Source: a virus. Taken from it: a DNA stretch of 64,000 nt. Position numbers and translations under genes: made by a program. The DNA is taken from positions 1-64,000 of IMG/VR virus record IMGVR_UViG_3300027749_000039, one strand, 5' to 3'. This document shows, one piece after another, positions 4,604 to 58,391 of this stretch (position 1 is its first letter; each line of letters starts with the position of its first letter). The notes beneath the pieces are model-generated. The model ran no database searches, was not told the origin of the DNA, and was given only the letters and a program-made list of their open reading frames with translations.

Positions 4604-4671
4604 AAAAGATTGAAAAATCACATCTTAATTTGAGCCATTCACTCCGAATTGGCTCAAAAAAAAAATCCTTT

Positions 4672-5502
4672 ATGTACAACACAAAAATTTACAACACACT
4701 CGTCCAAAAAATGAGAGGCTTTTTCCTGGAAAAAGGTTTCATCGAAGTTCCAACACAATCTAGAACTTCAATTCTCGCAGCTTGCGAAAATCCACACTCA
4801 GTTATGACTTTTCAATTAGACGGAGAGGTTTGGCCATTAAAACAAACAGGTCAAATGGATCTTGAAGAAGAATTGCTTAAAAATCCGGATTGGCCAGGAT
4901 GCTTTTGCTTAACTACATCTTATAGAGATGAGAAAAATCCAATACCTGGTAGGCATAACAAAATATTTCCAATGTTTGAATTTGAAGCAAAAGGAAATAT
5001 TGAGCATTTAAAACAAATGGAAAAGGAATTAGTAGTATATCTTGGATTTGACACACCAGTTGAAGTTAAATATGAAGATATGTGTGCTAAATATGACGTT
5101 TCAATTCTTGAAAATGAACAAGAAATAGAAATGTGGAATGAATTAGGACACTCTGTTTCTTTACAACAATTTCCTCTGCGCACGAGCCCCTTCTATAACA
5201 TGTATATGAACCCTGATAAAACATTTAATAAAATAGATGTAATATTATATGGTCAAGAAACAATTGGTTCGGCTCAAAGATCATGTGACCCAAAAATAAT
5301 GCGTGAATTATTCTATACAATATCAGATGGTGAATATGCTGCAAAATTATTTCAATTATTTGGCAGGGAAAGAGTTGAGAAAGAGTTAAACGAATTCTTA
5401 TCACTTGAATTCTTTGAAAGATATGGTGGAGGCATAGGAATAACGCGTCTAAGTCGAGCATACGAAATGTTAATGGCAGAAAAAATGCAAGAAATGGTAT
5501 AA
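4672..5502 (+). CDS. Asp/Asn-tRNA-synthetase-like catalytic domain lacking the anticodon-binding domain (archaeal-type asparagine synthetase/AsnRS2-like)
   Basis: Motif 1 FFLEKGFIEVPT, motif 2 TTSYRDEKNPIPGRHNKIFPMFEFE, ETIGSAQRS, motif 3 YGGGIGITRL; no N-terminal OB fold; ATG 4672 preferred over TTG 4630. Confidence 0.8.
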   Translation: MYNTKIYNTLVQKMRGFFLEKGFIEVPTQSRTSILAACENPHSVMTFQLDGEVWPLKQTGQMDLEEELLKNPDWPGCFCLTTSYRDEKNPIPGRHNKIFPMFEFEAKGNIEHLKQMEKELVVYLGFDTPVEVKYEDMCAKYDVSILENEQEIEMWNELGHSVSLQQFPLRTSPFYNMYMNPDKTFNKIDVILYGQETIGSAQRSCDPKIMRELFYTISDGEYAAKLFQLFGRERVEKELNEFLSLEFFERYGGGIGITRLSRAYEMLMAEKMQEMV

Positions 5503-5540: not shown

Positions 5541-5597
5541 TCTTTATACGCATCTAAATTATATTAAACTTTGACTAACATTAAAAATATAAAATTA

Positions 5598-7142
5598 ATG
5601 CTAATAGACACTCAATATTTAAGTCACACAAGAAAGCTAGTTTTATCGTATGTAGATAAAACTGGTAAGACAAAAATGAAATACTTTGATTGGACAAACC
5701 CAATGAAGTATCAAAACTGCGATTCAACGGATCCAGATAAACATCCACGGTTTAAATCATGGGATGGCAAACCTGTTAAGAAAATTCCGGCAGGATATCC
5801 TGATAGATATGCAATTTATGAATTTTTAGATAATCTTCCAGAAGATGAAAAGACTGAAATCTTTGAATATAACGACCCTGAAATCTATTTTATAGATATT
5901 GAAACAGCGTTAGATCCAAATACAGGCGGTTATTCTCAACCAGAAGACCCAAATGGACAAATATTGTCTATATCTTTGGTTTATGCTGATAAAATAATTC
6001 TAATGGGATTGAAAGATATGCCAGATGATATGCAAAAACGGATTATTGATGATACTAATAAATACTTTGCAAAGTTTGACAGCCATTATAAGTTTAAGTA
6101 TATTAAATATAATGATGAATTTAGTATGATTAAATCTTTCTTTGAAGATTTTGTGCCAAAAATGACTTGTTTAACTGGTTGGAACTTTGTGGGTTATGAC
6201 TGGTTATATTTAGTAAATCGTGCTAGAAAACTAACTAAAATCATAAATGGTGAGCAATTAACTATTGATCCAAATATATCTTCTCCTACAAAGAGAATGA
6301 ATAAAGTGTGGATGACTAATTATGAATTACCAGCACATAGACTTATATTTGATTATATGCAGTTATATGAAATCTGTGATACTTCAATCAAGGTTAAAGA
6401 ATCATCATCACTCGACTTCGTAGCAGGCAAATTAGTTGGTGTTAATAAAATCAAATATACCGGTAATTTACATAAATTATACGAAGATGATTTTGAATTA
6501 TTCATGTATTATAACTGCGTTGACTCTGTGTTGGTTCAAAAAATACACGAAGCTAAAAATTATATATCAATCGTATATGCGGTTTCATCACTTGCTAAAA
6601 TACAAATTAAAGATGTAGTTAATCAATCTAAAGGAGCTTTAGCGTCATTAGCAATTACAGAAGGTGTATTAAGAGACAGATTTAGAGATATGGAAGACAT
6701 CGTTTTGTTTAAAAACGAAGATAGACCTTCTTATGACGCAGAAGATACCGCTTTAGCAGGTGGTTGGGTAAAAGACCCAGTGACAGGTATGAACTTATGG
6801 GTTGTTTGTTATGACTTTGCATCTCTTTATCCAACCACGATGTTGGAGTTCTTTATAGCTCCGGAGAATTTTGTAGGAGTGCAAAATTCGGAAAATAAAT
6901 CTGTTTGCACTAATGGTATGCCAATTGATTTAACGAAACATGTTGTTTGTATAAATGGTGTGGTATTTAAAAAACACAGGTCTCCAACAATCACTATGAT
7001 AGAAGATGTTTATGCAGATAGGAAAAAAGCTAAAAAAATTATGATGCAAAAAAAAGAGGAATATCAAAGAATAATAAACGAAATAAAAGAATTAGAAGCC
7101 GAACTGAGCTCCTGCGCCTACATAAGTAAGCAAAATAATTAA
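5598..7142 (+). CDS. Family B DNA polymerase, N-terminal subunit (3'-5' exonuclease + motif A + first finger helix; gp43A-like)
   Basis: ExoI FIDIET, ExoII GWNFVGYDW, ExoIII YNCVDS, motif A YDFASLYP; ends after YADRKKAK helix with no KxxxNSxYG or DTDS. Confidence 0.9.
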   Translation: MLIDTQYLSHTRKLVLSYVDKTGKTKMKYFDWTNPMKYQNCDSTDPDKHPRFKSWDGKPVKKIPAGYPDRYAIYEFLDNLPEDEKTEIFEYNDPEIYFIDIETALDPNTGGYSQPEDPNGQILSISLVYADKIILMGLKDMPDDMQKRIIDDTNKYFAKFDSHYKFKYIKYNDEFSMIKSFFEDFVPKMTCLTGWNFVGYDWLYLVNRARKLTKIINGEQLTIDPNISSPTKRMNKVWMTNYELPAHRLIFDYMQLYEICDTSIKVKESSSLDFVAGKLVGVNKIKYTGNLHKLYEDDFELFMYYNCVDSVLVQKIHEAKNYISIVYAVSSLAKIQIKDVVNQSKGALASLAITEGVLRDRFRDMEDIVLFKNEDRPSYDAEDTALAGGWVKDPVTGMNLWVVCYDFASLYPTTMLEFFIAPENFVGVQNSENKSVCTNGMPIDLTKHVVCINGVVFKKHRSPTITMIEDVYADRKKAKKIMMQKKEEYQRIINEIKELEAELSSCAYISKQNN

Positions 7143-53058: not shown

Positions 53059-53946
53059 TTAGATTCTTGTTCCACAAGAAGGACAGAATTTTTCTGTTCC
53101 CTTTAATTTGTTTCCACAATCAGAACAAAAGTTCTTCTTTAATTCCGATGTTTCTACTGGTTTCTTGCTATTTGGAAGTAATTGATAAGAAACTTTACTG
53201 ACACAGTATGCTTCAAAATCCATTTCAATTGCTTCAAATTTTTGTTGTGATTTATCACCTTTTTCTATTCTACCAGTCTCAGTTGTATCAGAAAGTGTTT
53301 TATTCTTAGATTTAGACCTAAGAATATCTGAACTTTTTGATTGCTCCGAAGTATTAGAATAAGATCTAATAGTGTTTGATGTATTTGATATGTTTGATGT
53401 ATAAAAACAATTACTACTTCCTAATGACATATTATTAATACTTACTTGAGAAGTAGTAATTAATGGATTTGTCCCAAATGTTATATTTCCACCATTCGTA
53501 GGTATAATAGTGTTATCAACTGTCCAAGTAATATTTGGATTACTATTTAGATTAACATAAGTATAACTGTTGGCGATAAATTTTGGTGTAGTTCTTTCTT
53601 TAAAGAAAGAAACTTCTACAAATCCATTATTAGCAACGGCATTTAATGCTTCTGTTGAGTTTTCTACGTCATAGGTTTTAAATAAAAATTTCTTTTTATC
53701 ATCTAAAAAGCAATCTAAATAAAATCTTTGTCCTGGTCTTAAAATTAAACCATTTTCTGAAACTTTTTTACCATTGATTTTAATTTCAGCTAATACTGAA
53801 TCTTGAAGTGGATTAAAGAGTTCGATTATAAACTCTTGGTTATTGTCTAAATAGACTTTATTATTAAGATATATTTTTTTACGTCCTCTATCTTTTGAGT
53901 TGACGATCCATGCGGAAGGATTTCCGTTGTTTGATGTGTAATACAT
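53059..53946 (-). CDS. Conserved phage protein with C-terminal double zinc ribbon
   Basis: IELFNP...ING...GLILRPGQRFYL; FCSDCG...FCPSCG. Confidence 0.7.
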   Translation of the reverse strand: MYYTSNNGNPSAWIVNSKDRGRKKIYLNNKVYLDNNQEFIIELFNPLQDSVLAEIKINGKKVSENGLILRPGQRFYLDCFLDDKKKFLFKTYDVENSTEALNAVANNGFVEVSFFKERTTPKFIANSYTYVNLNSNPNITWTVDNTIIPTNGGNITFGTNPLITTSQVSINNMSLGSSNCFYTSNISNTSNTIRSYSNTSEQSKSSDILRSKSKNKTLSDTTETGRIEKGDKSQQKFEAIEMDFEAYCVSKVSYQLLPNSKKPVETSELKKNFCSDCGNKLKGTEKFCPSCGTRI

Positions 53947-54098
53947 ACTATTCTTTTTGTTTTATATCCTGTATCTTTATCCTCCTTGTAAAGGACTCAA
54001 AGCAACCTAAAATTACTCGACACAAGTTAAGCGAACAGCTCAATCATATATATCGAAAATATATTCTTCTCTTTTCTTGTTTTTTGAAATTTTTTTCG

Positions 54099-54106
54099 TA
54101 TCTTTG
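54099..54106 (+). promoter_or_regulatory. Bacteroidota-type -7 promoter element at head of the tRNA/Pth2/HD cluster
   Basis: CG-TATCTTTG upstream of ATG 54114. Confidence 0.65.
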
Positions 54107-54113
54107 TAAAGAA

Positions 54114-54230
54114 ATGAAAAGAAACAAGATTAATAAATATCAATTAGAAAATCTAATGTTCTATATATTAGGATGTTTAATGATTGCAGCATTATTAGCT
54201 TGTATATATACAATAACTTATCAACCATGA
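54114..54230 (+). CDS. Small membrane protein (38 aa)
   Basis: MKRNKINKYQLENLMFYILGCLMIAALLACIYTITYQP; single TM segment. Confidence 0.5.
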   Translation: MKRNKINKYQLENLMFYILGCLMIAALLACIYTITYQP

Positions 54231-54406
54231 AAATATCAATTTCAGCAACAACATTAACAATAATACTAGCAATCCTTAAACTAACTGGTGTATTTGCATT
54301 ATCTTGGTTATGGGTGTTTTGTCCAATTTGGATACCAATAGCCTTATTTGCTGTATATTTATTATTAATGGTATTATTTGTTTTTATTGCAATTTTGTTT
54401 TCATAA
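54227..54406 (+). CDS. Small membrane protein
   Basis: LAILKLTGVFALSWLWVFCPIWIP motif typical of small phage membrane proteins; ATG 54227. Confidence 0.7.
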   Translation: MKISISATTLTIILAILKLTGVFALSWLWVFCPIWIPIALFAVYLLLMVLFVFIAILFS

Positions 54407-54411
54407 ATATT

Positions 54412-54484
54412 GAGGGTATAGCTCAGTTGGAAGAGCATCTGACTCTAAATCAGAGAGTCGTGGGTTCGAGCCCCACTATCCTCT
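54412..54484 (+). tRNA. Amber suppressor tRNA (anticodon CUA)
   Basis: Acceptor GAGGGTA/TATCCTC, D-stem GCTC/GAGC, anticodon arm TCTGA-CTCTAAA-TCAGA (CTA at 54445-54447), T-arm GTGGG-TTCGAGC-CCCAC, N73=U, CCA not encoded. Confidence 0.92.
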
Positions 54485-54491
54485 CTTAAAT

Positions 54492-54573
54492 GCGGTCTGA
54501 GTTTTAAATCTATCCTGGCGGAAGAGCATGGCACTAAACTATGTAACATTGGGTTCGAATCCTACAGATCGCG
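54492..54573 (+). tRNA. Atypical/degenerate tRNA-like element, probable anticodon CUA
   Basis: Acceptor GCGGTCT/AGATCGC, T-loop TTCGAAT, anticodon arm CATGG-CACTAAA-CTATG (A33 instead of U33), oversized D region. Confidence 0.55.
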
Positions 54574-54587
54574 CTAAAAATTAAAAT

Positions 54588-54812
54588 ATGATATCAATAA
54601 TATTATTAGCACTTACTATATGGTGTGGTTATAAGCTTGTTACAAGCGAGAATAAATTACTTTATTCAACATTAGTATTACTTATTGATGGCGCTTGGAT
54701 TGCATATAACTTATATACACATAGTTATATATATGCTGCATTTTGGGTAGTATTACTATTGTTTGATACAAGAACATACCAAAGATATAAAAATGAGCAA
54801 GAAGAAGATTAG
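54588..54812 (+). CDS. Small membrane protein
   Basis: 74 aa, three hydrophobic segments; ends in TAG. Confidence 0.65.
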   Translation: MISIILLALTIWCGYKLVTSENKLLYSTLVLLIDGAWIAYNLYTHSYIYAAFWVVLLLFDTRTYQRYKNEQEED

Positions 54813-55104
54813 AGAAATTTTTAGAAATGATGTCTTAAAAAGAGATAAGAATAAATGCCGCATATGTGGTGATTCTAAATCTAATCTAGATGCTCACCAT
54901 ATTACTGATAGGCATGAAATGCCTAGTGGTGGCTATGTTAAAGAAAATGGTATAACCCTCTGTGATAAAGAGGGTGGATGTCATATGAAAGCAGAACAAT
55001 ATCATATAGGTAATAAAGTTGAAGAAGGATTTATGCCAGATGATTTATATAAATTAATTAATTCAAGCTACGAAATAGCTTATTACGAATCTTTAAATCT
55101 TTAA
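54793..55104 (+). CDS. HNH endonuclease
   Basis: VLKRDKNKCRICG...LDAHHI...ENGITLC...CH; ATG 54793. Confidence 0.85.
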   Translation: MSKKKIREIFRNDVLKRDKNKCRICGDSKSNLDAHHITDRHEMPSGGYVKENGITLCDKEGGCHMKAEQYHIGNKVEEGFMPDDLYKLINSSYEIAYYESLNL

Positions 55105-55105
55105 T

Positions 55106-55273
55106 ATGGAGTATTTAGAAAAAACTAGACAAGAATTTTATAAATTAATACAAAGGCAAAACTTTAAATGGGAATTAATTGATAATATGCTTCTTGAAGA
55201 AGACGAACCAGCTAAACCTCTTAAAATAAGAGAAAAGAAAATTAAGGCAAAAATTGAATTAACAACAAATTAA
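55106..55273 (+). CDS. Small hypothetical protein (55 aa)
   Basis: MEYLEKTRQEF... fills the gap between co-oriented genes. Confidence 0.5.
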   Translation: MEYLEKTRQEFYKLIQRQNFKWELIDNMLLEEDEPAKPLKIREKKIKAKIELTTN

Positions 55274-55306
55274 AAAATAAATATATAAAAATAAAAACAA
55301 TTACTT

Positions 55307-55672
55307 ATGTTGTAGAACAAATTTAACGAAACAAAATTAGTGATAATATCTAGACAAGATATGTCATCAGGCTACCAAGTGGTCCAATCAGCACATGCTA
55401 TTGCGGATTTCGCAAGCGAACATCCCGAAACTTTTGAACAATGGAAAAAAGAATCTAATTCCATTATTTGCCTCTCAATCAAAGATGAGGAAACTTTATT
55501 AAAACTTCACGAAAAATTATCAAAGAAAACAGCAAGTTCATCATTTTATGAACCTGATGTTAATGCTTTTACGGCAATTTGTGTCTATGGCACACCTGAA
55601 ATCCGTAAAAGTCTTTCGCATTTGCCATTAGTTTTAAATAAAAAATCAAAAGATGGCGAAACGTGGTCGTGA
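55307..55672 (+). CDS. Pth2-like peptidyl-tRNA hydrolase with in-frame TAG at codon 3
   Basis: ATG TTG TAG AAC AAA TTT AAC GAA ACA AAA TTA GTG in frame with KLVIISRQD...YQVVQSAHA...SIICL...FYEPDV...TAIC...SHLPL. Confidence 0.75.
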
Positions 55673-55690
55673 TAAGTTAATATATACTTT

Positions 55691-56485
55691 ATGTATATAC
55701 GAAATTGTCCATCTTGTGGAAAAGAATTGACCTACACTACTAATTATAGTAAAAATAGGCAAGAAAAACTAAATAAATCTTGTAGAAGCTGTACTACCAA
55801 AAAGGAATATGTTATAAATCCGGATAAAAATAAAGGAGAAGAAAATGGTAGATTTGGAAAATCATTATTAGAAGTAATGAACAACAAATATGGTGAAAAA
55901 AAAGCAGAAATTAATTATAATAATTGGAAAAATAACAAAAATTCTTTTGGGATTAAAGAAAAAAATCCACAATATGGTATTTCCCCATTTAAGAATAATG
56001 GAATGTCATATAAGGGATGGTATAAAGGAATGTTTTTTAGAAGTAGTTTTGAATTGATGTTTATATTTGAAAATTATGATAAAAAAATAATTTCCGCAGA
56101 AACAAAAGAATATAGAGTTAGTTATAATTATTTAGGTAATGAAACACATTATTATCCGGATTTTTATAGCGAAACAAATAATACCATTTACGAAATAAAA
56201 TCTAAAAAATGGTTATTAGATAGTAAAAATCTTCTAAAAATAGAAGCAGGTAAGGAAGAATTTAAAAAAAGAGGAATTAAATATGAGGTATTATGTGAAT
56301 ATGATATGGATATATTTAAAAAATATAATTCTGATTGGCAGAAAATTATTTATGATTTTCTTTATGAATTAGTCATTTATAATGAAGTTAATTTAACAGA
56401 CTTGTCTTTTAAAAAATTAAAATTAAAATTGTTAAAAACAAAAAGGATTACAAAACTAAAAACAATAGAAAATACTATGAAGTAG
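55691..56485 (+). mobile_element. Putative homing endonuclease (zinc ribbon + NUMOD3-like + TnsA-like PD-(D/E)xK)
   Basis: CPSCG...CRSC, GEENGRFGK, NPQYG, FRSSFEL, HYYPDF, IYEIKS; ends at the TAG of the next gene's start. Confidence 0.7.
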
Positions 56486-57055
56486 ATAACATTATCAGCA
56501 TTAAGAGAAGCGATGGAAAGTTGCGAACAAACAAAGGGGGTCTCTACCTTACAACATGGTCTATCCGTTAAAAATTATTTATTTGATTTACTAACTCATT
56601 TAAGAAATGAAACGCCATTAAAATATGAATGGTCATTACCAAAATGGGTAATTGAGAACAAAGAATTTTTATTAGATAATTTATCTGATGATAAAACGCT
56701 ATCATTATATACCGAGTATCATGATTGTGGAAAATGGTCATGTCTTGAAGTTGATGATGACGGCAAAAGACACTTTCCAAATCATGCTGAGAAATCCTAT
56801 GATATTTTTAAACAAACATTTAAAAACCAAATAGCAGCTATATTAGTTAAACATGATATGGATATACATACTTTAAAAGCAGATGGTGTTGAAAACTTCT
56901 GTAAAAATCCATTAGCAATAACATTGTTATTAACTGGACTTGCAGAGATACACTCAAATGCTAGTATATTTGGTGGTATTGATAGCACAAGTTTTAAGAT
57001 TAAATTAAAAAGTATAACACAAAGAGGAAAACAAATTTTAAATATTCTAAAATGA
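56477..57055 (+). CDS. HD-domain hydrolase with in-frame TAG at codon 3
   Basis: ATG AAG TAG ATA ACA TTA TCA GCA TTA AGA GAA GCG ATG... in frame with CEQTKG...QHGLSV, YHDCGK, HFPNHAEKS, HDMDIH, AEIHSN; ATG 56513 is the alternative start. Confidence 0.7.
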
Positions 57056-57354
57056 TAGAAGTAATACAAGATACTACATCAAAATATGGACCATGGTTAG
57101 CCGAATTTGGAACTTATGAATTAGTAGACGACGGTATACTAACCGCAGATGAATCACAAATACTAGATGATTCTTCTGGTGAATATGAAGTATTGAAATG
57201 TAAATTGAAAAACATTGATTTCACAAAACTTCAATATGGTAGCAAATTTTTGAAAGTCAAAAGAAGTAATGGTAATATTGAAACTTGGTCATATGGTGGT
57301 CAAAGTAGAATTATTCCAGAAGAAAATTTTAGTTTTTTTACAAGACCGATATGA
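57052..57354 (+). CDS. Hypothetical protein
   Basis: 100 aa. Confidence 0.65.
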   Translation: MIEVIQDTTSKYGPWLAEFGTYELVDDGILTADESQILDDSSGEYEVLKCKLKNIDFTKLQYGSKFLKVKRSNGNIETWSYGGQSRIIPEENFSFFTRPI

Positions 57355-58391
57355 ATATAAAAGAAACATTTTTAAAACTAACTAGTAGAACTTATCCATA
57401 TGGTAATGAGCATCGTTTACGATCCTCATTGCCTAAAGATACTAAACGTGATAAACACGGTAATTTCTACTATAAAATAGGTTCATCAAGAACTATTTTT
57501 GCCTGTCATCTAGACACTGTTTCAAAAAAATATGAAGAAGTTGCTCATGTTTTTGACGGCAACATCATTAGAACAGACGGTAAAACAATACTAGGTGCTG
57601 ATGATAAAGCTGGTATGTGTGTGTTATTATATATGATTGACCAAAAAGTTCCTGGAACATATTTCTTCTTTGTGGGAGAAGAAGTTGGTTGTATTGGCAG
57701 TAAAGCAGCAGCATCAAAAGATAAGGATTTCTTTTTTGAATATGATAAGATAATATCTTTTGATAGGAAAGATACTTGTTCTATTATAACCCACCAAAGT
57801 TGGGAAAGATGCTGTTCAAATGATTTTGCAAAAGCTTTATCAAAAGAATATACCGATTTAGGTTTAGAACTAATACCTGATGATACAGGTGTTGGAACTG
57901 ATTCCGCCCAATTTACCGATATAATTCCTGAATGTACAAATATATCAGTAGGATATTATAAGGAGCATACACATGAAGAGCATCAAGATATAGATTTCTT
58001 GGAAAGACTTTGTATGGCTTCCGCTATTATTGACTGGGAAAGTTTACCGACTGCAAGAGATCCAAAAATAAAAGAATACAAAGAATATGATTATGATAAT
58101 CATTATTCAAAATGGATTAATAAGGAGCGTGAACGTGAAAAAGTATGTAAATGGAATTATGCCGATAATAGAAGAAAAGATAGAGTTGATTTAAGAAAAA
58201 CATACGGCTATAATGAAGATTTACCTATTGATGAAGAACTAAGAAGTAGATTGAATGATGCATCTTTATATGGAACTACGGATAGAAAAGATATATTTTT
58301 CGTATTCAGAGAATCTATGTTAGATAGAGGATTTTCAGCAGCAGAATATGGTATAATCGAGGAACAATATATTGATAACTATTTAGTTTAA
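57351..58391 (+). CDS. M28/M20-like zinc peptidase/amidohydrolase
   Basis: ACHLDTV, LGADDKAG, GEEVGCIGS, SFDR, SVGYYKEH. Confidence 0.8.
   Translation: MNIKETFLKLTSRTYPYGNEHRLRSSLPKDTKRDKHGNFYYKIGSSRTIFACHLDTVSKKYEEVAHVFDGNIIRTDGKTILGADDKAGMCVLLYMIDQKVPGTYFFFVGEEVGCIGSKAAASKDKDFFFEYDKIISFDRKDTCSIITHQSWERCCSNDFAKALSKEYTDLGLELIPDDTGVGTDSAQFTDIIPECTNISVGYYKEHTHEEHQDIDFLERLCMASAIIDWESLPTARDPKIKEYKEYDYDNHYSKWINKEREREKVCKWNYADNRRKDRVDLRKTYGYNEDLPIDEELRSRLNDASLYGTTDRKDIFFVFRESMLDRGFSAAEYGIIEEQYIDNYLV

Follow-up and report, generated by a model that had tools for sequence, protein, structure and literature searches.

A putative suppressor-tRNA-operated translational gate on two predicted tRNA 3'-end enzyme genes in a freshwater phage genome and its relatives

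The window analysed here is the 64,000-nucleotide stretch at positions 1 to 64,000 of IMG/VR virus record IMGVR_UViG_3300027749_000039. It represents the first 64 kb of a 190,602-bp phage genome with a GC content of 27.9% that, according to the sequencing-run records, comes from a freshwater metagenome. Near its end, the window carries a tRNA(CUA) gene followed on the same strand by genes for a Pth2-like hydrolase and an HD-type phosphohydrolase, both of which have an in-frame TAG as their third codon. The early TAG is kept in most relatives of these genes, is frequently linked to a tRNA(CUA), and is followed by conserved residues. We propose that the suppressor tRNA operates these early stops as a translational gate on two predicted tRNA 3'-end enzymes, and assign this reading a probability of about 0.7 from sequence comparisons.

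In this model, ribosomes would start both genes at their ordinary ATG and reach the UAG at codon 3. Where RF1 acts at this codon, only a dipeptide would be released, and where the phage's own tRNA(CUA) decodes it, the full enzyme would be made. If UAG decoding is required, the output of both enzymes would therefore depend on, and scale with, the charged functional suppressor tRNA relative to RF1. With a stop at codons 2 to 5, failed attempts would be cheap. In Escherichia coli, a stop at codons 2 to 5 sits where release is inefficient.

Two genes with an amber third codon next to a tRNA(CUA)

The main features are as follows.

54412..54485, + strand: tRNA(CUA), amber suppressor and proposed "key" of the gate (ARAGORN; Rfam RF00005, 69.1 bits, E = 2.7e-14; model R1, 77.9 bits)
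55307..55315, + strand: gate 1, codons 1 to 3 of the Pth2-like gene (ATG-TTG-TAG, read from the sequence)
55307..55672, + strand: Pth2-like hydrolase gene, 121 codons including the TAG (Pfam PTH2, PDB profile, fold)
56477..56485, + strand: gate 2, codons 1 to 3 of the HD gene (ATG-AAG-TAG, read from the sequence)
56477..57055, + strand: HD-type phosphohydrolase gene, 192 codons including the TAG (HD motif, fold, PHROG)

A well-formed tRNA(CUA) had been predicted in this cluster from the letters alone, and both ARAGORN (anticodon cta) and Rfam recover it. The tRNA folds into a canonical cloverleaf with the anticodon loop CUCUAAA, and scores highly with model R1, a covariance model built from 33 phage tRNA(CUA) genes. 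It is the only one of the 46 tRNA genes of the genome that lies in the window. The other 45 are found in arrays at 129-173 kb, 75-118 kb away from the Pth2-like gene, which the tRNA(CUA) precedes by 0.8 kb. The CUA tRNAs of the module share the anticodon arm CGGU-CUCUAAA-ACCG. A search for an isoacceptor parent of this tRNA family gave no clear candidate, as the nearest tRNAs are 64-79% identical and of mixed types; the window tRNA(CUA) is closest to a tRNA-Asn of the relative LR745206.

The Pth2-like frame comprises ATG at 55307, TTG, the TAG at 55313, eight codons without a start codon, a GTG at 55340, and the end of the gene at 55672. The ATG-NNN-TAG start in frame with the domain, as originally predicted, is thus found at 55307-55315. 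The protein matches Pfam PTH2 (PF01981) with 36.3 bits against a cut-off of 23 (E = 7.4e-9), and its family profile A3 matches the PDB Pth2 structure 2zv3 over the full length (E = 1.2e-9). The AlphaFold model has a predicted local distance difference test score (pLDDT) of 92.3. Its top Foldseek matches in the PDB are archaeal Pth2 and human Bit1 (2zv3, 3erj, 1wn2 and 1q7s, the last being Bit1), with a probability of 1.0 and TM scores of 0.68-0.73. The Q-x-x-H and E-P-D...T motifs are invariant in the family. The GKGK loop of archaeal Pth2 aligns with P-G-Y, and the two NCBIfam Pth2 equivalog models score 32 bits (cut-off 126) and 28 bits (cut-off 82). Because these scores are far under the equivalog cut-offs and the GKGK loop differs, we refer to the protein as Pth2-like.

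The stretch that follows the TAG is coding. Among 37 sequences, L8 is invariant and K7 nearly so; both residues lie upstream of GTG 55340 and would be lost if translation started there. In the AlphaFold model, the first β-strand of the Pth2 fold starts at residue 7 after the TAG. The codons from the TAG to GTG 55340 encode NKFNETKL, and differ from those of relative L005 by four synonymous changes and no replacement, and from those of relative L004 by one replacement (N to D) plus synonymous changes.

The HD frame runs from ATG 56477 through AAG, the TAG at 56483, ATA and eight further codons to an ATG at 56513, and ends at 57055. The residues of the HD motif (H24, H79-D80, H100 and D124) are invariant in 10 sequences of 40-69% identity. 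The AlphaFold model has a pLDDT of 96, and confidently shows a helix at residues 3-12 after the TAG, which precede ATG 56513. The protein gave no hit against Pfam or NCBIfam, and matches PHROG 14850, a fused Pth2-HD form, with an E-value of 3e-60. Its top Foldseek matches are 3wfo-3wfs, described as "tRNA processing enzyme" (E = 6e-3, TMq 0.57-0.62), followed by weaker matches to PhnZ, PgpH and HD-GYP. The region matched in 3wfo-3wfs is the C-terminal half of class-II tRNA nucleotidyltransferases. Judging from the model, the HD protein resembles the HD-containing half of these enzymes. The Pth2 fold would hydrolyse a peptidyl- or acyl-tRNA ester and the HD fold is similar to the repair half of CCA-adding enzymes, so both proteins are plausibly tRNA 3'-end enzymes.

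Contigs from the independent freshwater runs X2 and X3 are identical at both TAG sites (gate 1 confirmed in X3, gate 2 in X2 and X3). The TAGs are therefore no errors of assembly, and the CAG or AAG in place of TAG that the original prediction had named as a case against itself is not seen in these contigs.

Conservation, linkage and genetic code

We collected 80 IMG/VR loci of 36-81% identity as relatives from a family-alignment scan. A TAG lies directly 5' of the conserved N-terminus in 75 of them, and at least 67 have an in-frame ATG one to four codons upstream of it. Only two loci (L131 and L165) have a plain ATG start. Eight huge or jumbo phages from GenBank and IMG/VR were checked first (LR745206, LR756504, LR756502, LR756500, LR756501, pT24, which is a cultured Tenacibaculum phage, and two IMG/VR contigs). 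All eight have an ATG, zero to two codons and a TAG right before the Pth2-like N-terminus. The HD genes of LR745206 and L004 also carry an early TAG, and the HD gate start is present on the HD genes of 15 relatives and three fusions.

An unbiased early-stop scan was performed for an ATG followed by zero to three codons, a stop and at least 70 open codons. Besides the 80 loci, it took in pT24, LR745206, the present genome and some additional stretches from GenBank. The early-TAG open reading frames (ORFs) formed one BLAST cluster of 88 (69 Pth2-like, 15 HD and three fused), whereas no cluster in the TAA or TGA controls exceeded three. This goes far beyond what chance would give. Further early-TAG candidates of the present genome (134774, 148376, 186491 and 5195) have no homologues in the early-TAG set and were dismissed as chance; those at 134774, 148376 and 5195 have a canonical start 3-11 codons further on.

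A non-redundant set of 64 gates has the TAG at codon 3 in 44 cases, at codon 4 in 14, at codon 5 in four and at codon 2 in two. The base that follows it is a purine in 62 of 64 cases (A in 53, G in nine), against 45 of 90 gene-terminal TAGs (Fisher p = 2.6e-11). In E. coli, amber suppression is favoured by a purine on the 3' side. No ATG, GTG or TTG occurs within 15 codons after the TAG in 44 of the 64 genes, and about 15 have a non-start codon right after it (GTA in eight, AAC, ACC-type, AGC, CTT and TTA). The residues behind the TAG are conserved and belong to the fold, and most genes offer no start codon after it, so the UAG must be decoded. The Pth2 gene of LR756501 carries a second TAG in the middle of the domain.

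The gate is also found before Pth2 and HD domains fused in either order, in pT24 (Pth2-HD), L115 and the Xanthomonas phage XacN1 (HD-Pth2), where a single gate precedes the fused pair; the fusions mark Pth2 and HD as functional partners. The phages with an early TAG infect Bacteroidota, Proteobacteria and Actinobacteria, and mycobacteriophages of high GC content are among them. It was not present in the homologues from Lak phages. In LR745206 and LR756502, a long hairpin lies just upstream of the Pth2 mini-ORF (L001 2870-2960; L003 about 2900-2965), with an outer stem of about 9 bp in L001 (UCCUCCUUA/UAAGGAGGA); the window has no such hairpin.

A tRNA(CUA) was detected by ARAGORN within 3.5 kb of the gene in 50 of the 80 loci. 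All 51 tRNAs concerned are on the strand of the gene, 28 upstream (12 of them by less than 200 nucleotides) and 23 downstream. The tRNA set of phage pT24 comprises just one CUA and two Ile-UAU genes. All three lie some 2-2.5 kb upstream of the gated Pth2-HD fusion, and no other gene of pT24 is a convincing early-TAG case. LR756501 has two CUA tRNAs 2.1 kb from Pth2, and LR756500 has one 0.8 kb away. The proposal that the codon-3 ambers are functional and read by the phage's own tRNA(CUA) thus gains support from the kept TAG, the linkage and the conserved residues behind it. A check suggested with it, that homologues should keep the TAG together with a tRNA(CUA) and an aminoacyl-tRNA synthetase (aaRS), came out in favour of the TAG and of the nearby tRNA, but the aaRS is not co-conserved.

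Among cultured phages, ORF364 of XacN1, the HD-Pth2 fusion, has ATG-AAG-TAG in frame five codons upstream of its annotated ATG, and a Shine-Dalgarno-like AGAGGA is found 9 nucleotides before the first ATG, which is the ATG in front of the TAG. In mycobacteriophage IkeLoa, ATG-TAG-GTG is found at the gene named "peptidyl tRNA hydrolase", with a tRNA(CUA) 250 nucleotides downstream, and mycobacteriophage Myrna has GTG-TAG-GTG. Public annotations place the start of these genes at an ATG or GTG inside the frame, behind the amber, or split the gene, as in pT24 BPT24_235 (L008 1453-2400), XacN1 ORF364 (L178) and IkeLoa gene 151 (L174). Conserved N-terminal residues are thereby trimmed, and the annotation of these three genes calls for correction. 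The module is open to testing in cultured systems, namely pT24, XacN1 and the Bixzunavirus mycobacteriophages in Mycobacterium smegmatis.

Outside the gates, the genome reads in the standard code with mostly TAA stops, in agreement with the original prediction. ORFs of at least 100 amino acids cover 83.3% of the genome in the standard code, and 83.6% with TAG as sense. The 179 ORFs called in the standard code end in TAA (148), TGA (23) or TAG (8). In-frame joins between long open frames occur at TAG only four times against 40 for TAA, and TAG is also rarer there than TGA. Genome-wide recoding of TAG or TGA was rejected, as a sense reading of either gives no gain in coverage. Internal TAGs as general sense codons were likewise rejected for this genome and for pT24, where in-frame TAG is not enriched. 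We also rejected a programmed C-terminal read-through of TAG-ended genes: the median extension is 30.5 versus 5 codons, but with n = 8 and p = 0.17, and pT24 and LR745206 show no such signal. On the minus strand at genome position 188103, a single TAG joins open frames of 833 and 947 codons in frame, with an ATG two codons later, and could be the junction of two neighbouring genes or a read-through fusion.

Neighbouring elements in the window

Three further features lie within the cluster.

54492..54574, + strand: degenerate second tRNA(CUA)-like element in tandem with the first (model R1, 25.9 bits, E about 2e-6, full length)
54793..55104, + strand: HNH endonuclease gene between the tRNAs and the Pth2-like gene, as context (Pfam HNH, E = 5e-4)
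55691..56485, + strand: inserted Zn-finger/TnsA-like endonuclease ORF of 264 amino acids that ends at the gate 2 TAG (Pfam, PHROG)

A second CUA tRNA-like element had been pointed out next to the tRNA(CUA). It is indeed present and matched by model R1 with CUA at the anticodon position, but it is degenerate and missed by standard tools, both ARAGORN at default settings and Rfam at E ≤ 10. The element starts six bases downstream of the tRNA(CUA), and has a 7-bp acceptor stem and a near-canonical T arm. Its defects are A33 instead of the universal U33, a 17-nucleotide D-loop and a mismatch in the T stem, and its fold z-score is only -1.44. It is tRNA-derived, and looks like a decayed or aberrant second copy of doubtful function. 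Intact canonical tandem pairs of CUA tRNAs occur in LR756501 and L112. Many tRNAs of the 129-173 kb arrays are also arranged as tandem pairs or triplets of one isoacceptor in which one copy is 86-90 nucleotides long (for example 172625-172711, 171262-171351, 162373-162458 and 133744-133833), and LR745206 has the same habit. One tRNA of these arrays has an 8-nucleotide anticodon loop that ARAGORN reads as "ctga".

The HNH gene matches 14 PHROG families, 11 of them under the name "HNH endonuclease"; the best-matching family is called "RNA ligase". It is probably mobile. The endonuclease ORF has a weak match to the Pfam TnsA-like N-terminal domain (E = 1e-4) and matches PHROG 15427, "endonuclease" (E = 1.5e-10). 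In the closest relative (L004/L093), whose Pth2 is 81% identical, the Pth2 stop is followed after about 50 nucleotides by ATG-AAG-TAG-ATA-ACA, and the endonuclease ORF is missing. The ORF was therefore inserted, running into a gate that was already there, and does not belong to the ancestral module; it is probably a homing endonuclease. The natural-looking ATG-NNN-TAG start originally described for the HD gene is present as ATG-AAG-TAG, but the same codons end the endonuclease ORF, which makes that wording inexact. Suppression at gate 2 would also give a 454-residue endonuclease-HD fusion. In L096, a similar 272-codon ORF runs into the HD gate, and in L126, a Vsr-like endonuclease ORF located just upstream of Pth2 itself starts with ATG-AAG-TAG.

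Two aaRS-like genes at the other end of the window had been put forward as charging enzymes, and both annotations are real. The region 4630-5499 encodes the catalytic core of a class-II aaRS of the Asp/Asn/Lys type that lacks an anticodon-binding domain (PHROG 29758), and 1-312 encodes the C-terminal part of a small HisRS-like protein (PHROG 4806, "histidyl tRNA synthetase"). Neither travels with the module, and pT24 has the module with just three tRNAs, so the proposed role is not supported. Homologues of the core are absent from pT24, from LR745206 and from all 80 loci. Homologues of the HisRS-like protein were found only in LR745206 and L131, the latter being one of the two loci without the amber. 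In LR745206, a full-length class-IIb aaRS lies directly upstream of the gated Pth2 gene. The window further encodes ordinary phage cargo, including a protein with an Eco57I-type methylase domain (383-2023), a family-B DNA polymerase (5571-7142) and an M28/M20-like peptidase (57351-58391).

Competing explanations and known systems

Several points weigh against a gate read by the neighbouring tRNA. No CUA tRNA was found by ARAGORN within 3.5 kb of the gene in 30 of the 80 loci. LR745206, LR756504 and LR756502 are gated and have no canonical CUA tRNA; they share only a non-canonical CUA element located far off, with a UUCUAAC loop closed by an A.C or C.C mismatch. This element corresponds to L092 2045-2122, which is LR745206 507344-507421, and also occurs in L090 and L091; in the LR756504 copy, ARAGORN reads a four-base anticodon, UCUA. 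In addition, TAG persists as a terminal codon in eight of 179 genes of this genome, 27 of 233 in pT24 and 55 of 688 in LR745206, so an efficient suppressor would cost read-through elsewhere. As some genes of these phages continue to end in TAG, any suppression has to be partial or to depend on context. The key of the gate is encoded next door and is probably co-transcribed with the genes that it would open, which leaves no obvious regulatory input. A promoter and terminator scan of 53900-57400 stayed at chance level and was uninformative, and found no + strand terminator inside the cluster. Finally, a start without read-through is possible in Myrna and IkeLoa, where a Shine-Dalgarno sequence is found 7 nucleotides before the GTG right after the TAG, and weak starts often follow the TAG elsewhere, ATT in 40 and ATA in seven of the 64 genes (ATG or ATC in two).

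The two latter observations agree with termination and reinitiation, the main rival explanation. The ATG, zero to three codons and TAG would then form a tiny upstream open reading frame (uORF), and ribosomes would restart at the adjacent ATT, ATA or GTG, the UAG never being decoded. In this view, ribosomes would be loaded or throttled by the mini-ORF, and the neighbouring tRNA(CUA) would have some other function. Regulation by minimal AUG-stop uORFs is known from other systems, and phages of the LR745206 type, which lack a canonical CUA tRNA, also fit this explanation, as do the mycobacteriophages with their RTG-TAG-GTG arrangement. However, in the roughly 15 of 64 genes with a non-start codon after the TAG, the window Pth2-like gene included, the conserved strand comes one to nine residues on, with no start in between. 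Reinitiation also gives no reason for a stop that is always TAG and never TAA or TGA, though TAA is the dominant stop. It leaves unexplained the co-oriented tRNA(CUA) of 50 loci and the three-tRNA set of pT24, and it cannot account for the mid-gene TAG of LR756501. We therefore regard reinitiation as improbable, although it is possible for a subset of the genes, notably those of the mycobacteriophages.

A slighter chance goes to an incipient or relict recoding to code 15, without regulatory meaning, in which TAG drifts to sense in a low-GC lineage that has a suppressor tRNA. The low GC content and the rarity of TAG among the stops of this genome match the path proposed by Borges et al., from TAG loss at low GC to gain of a suppressor tRNA and then recoding (bioRxiv 10.1101/2021.08.26.457843). 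LR756501 also has its extra internal TAG. Drift, however, predicts scattered positions and genes. Instead, TAG is confined to codons 2-5 of two functionally linked families, down to 36% identity and in three host phyla, and neither this genome nor pT24 shows an enrichment of other in-frame TAGs. Lak phages, which are distant relatives, are reported to read TAG as a sense codon; their homologues lack the early TAG. It is very improbable that the UAG serves to insert a special residue, non-standard or not available by other means, near the N-terminus of both enzymes by means of a dedicated tRNA and charging system. The tRNA(CUA) family does have a conserved anticodon arm and no clear isoacceptor parent, and this phage has a class-II aaRS core; that core is nonetheless missing from pT24, LR745206 and every one of the 80 loci, the UAG sits in a variable, poorly conserved leader at a varying distance of one to 10 residues before the fold, and two relatives manage without it. 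Sequencing errors or decay into pseudogenes would explain the presence of an in-frame stop and nothing further. This possibility is effectively refuted by the identical independent runs and by the occurrence of the feature in about 75 loci with intact, well-folding ORFs under purifying selection.

We thus favour a gate in which this tRNA would decode these UAGs, and which may be regulatory. Its purpose could be to match the dose of the enzymes to suppressor activity, to provide feedback on tRNA charging, to set their timing, or to use a reporter tRNA that senses attack on tRNA ends. In a stronger version, which we consider unlikely, the tRNA(CUA) would be a dedicated reporter, or "canary", without any other coding role, and would form with the two enzymes a closed loop that both measures and sets the state of tRNA 3'-ends in the infected cell. 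Enzyme synthesis would then go up only while the reporter is intact, charged and beating RF1, and would go down on over-hydrolysis. If true, the loop could be a homeostat or a counter to host toxins that block tRNA ends, and would represent a natural tRNA-operated genetic switch common to jumbo phages of several host phyla.

We found no published description of an amber-gated Pth2 or HD gene in the literature. The survey of jumbo-phage PTH2 proteins by Iyer et al. in 2021 mentions neither an early amber, nor the linkage to tRNA(CUA), nor the HD partner (PMC7824862). XacN1 was reported to have two tRNA(CUA) genes and the standard code, and its authors were unable to identify a target when reading through gene-terminal TAGs (PMC5852040). 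No target was named there, and we propose ORF364 with its ATG-AAG-TAG as one. The module thus gives the orphan suppressor tRNAs of standard-code phages a conserved, specific target. If confirmed, it would also provide a natural orthogonal pair of tRNA and leader for the control of gene expression.

The gates are reminiscent of lambda bar and other two- or three-codon minigenes, which cause peptidyl-tRNA drop-off and are toxic when Pth is limiting. Both consist of an ATG, one to three codons and a stop, and here they precede a gene for a peptidyl-tRNA-hydrolase-like protein. Those minigenes are free-standing and use any stop, whereas the stop described here is always TAG, in frame with a conserved downstream ORF and linked to the matching suppressor tRNA. 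A drop-off or sensor logic for the gates, as put forward with the original prediction, is speculative. Another parallel is prfB, the gene of RF2, where an early in-frame UGA and a +1 frameshift at codon 26 sense the gene's own product. Both have an early in-frame stop in a gene related to translation, at which termination would be balanced against recoding; unlike in prfB, the frame is kept here, and a dedicated tRNA would be the effector.

A further comparison is with code-15 phages (crAss-like, Lak and others), which likewise combine a phage tRNA(CUA) and low GC with a depletion of TAG as a stop, and in which in-frame TAG has also been proposed to tie the translation of certain genes to the phage's own tRNA (10.1101/2021.08.26.457843; PMC9523058). 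In those phages, TAG is read as Gln, in-frame TAGs occur in many, mostly late or lysis genes, and coding density in code 11 is low (10.1101/2021.08.26.457843; PMC9523058). The present genome shares with them the phage suppressor tRNA(CUA), and shows neither in-frame TAGs in many genes nor an improved coverage when TAG is read as sense. Unlike in code-15 phages, the standard code is used, the conserved in-frame TAGs are only single codons at positions 2-5 of two genes, and GC-rich mycobacteriophages carry them too. A single early stop read by a dedicated neighbouring tRNA thus appears to be an old and widespread control of two tRNA-end enzymes that is distinct from a wholesale change of the code.

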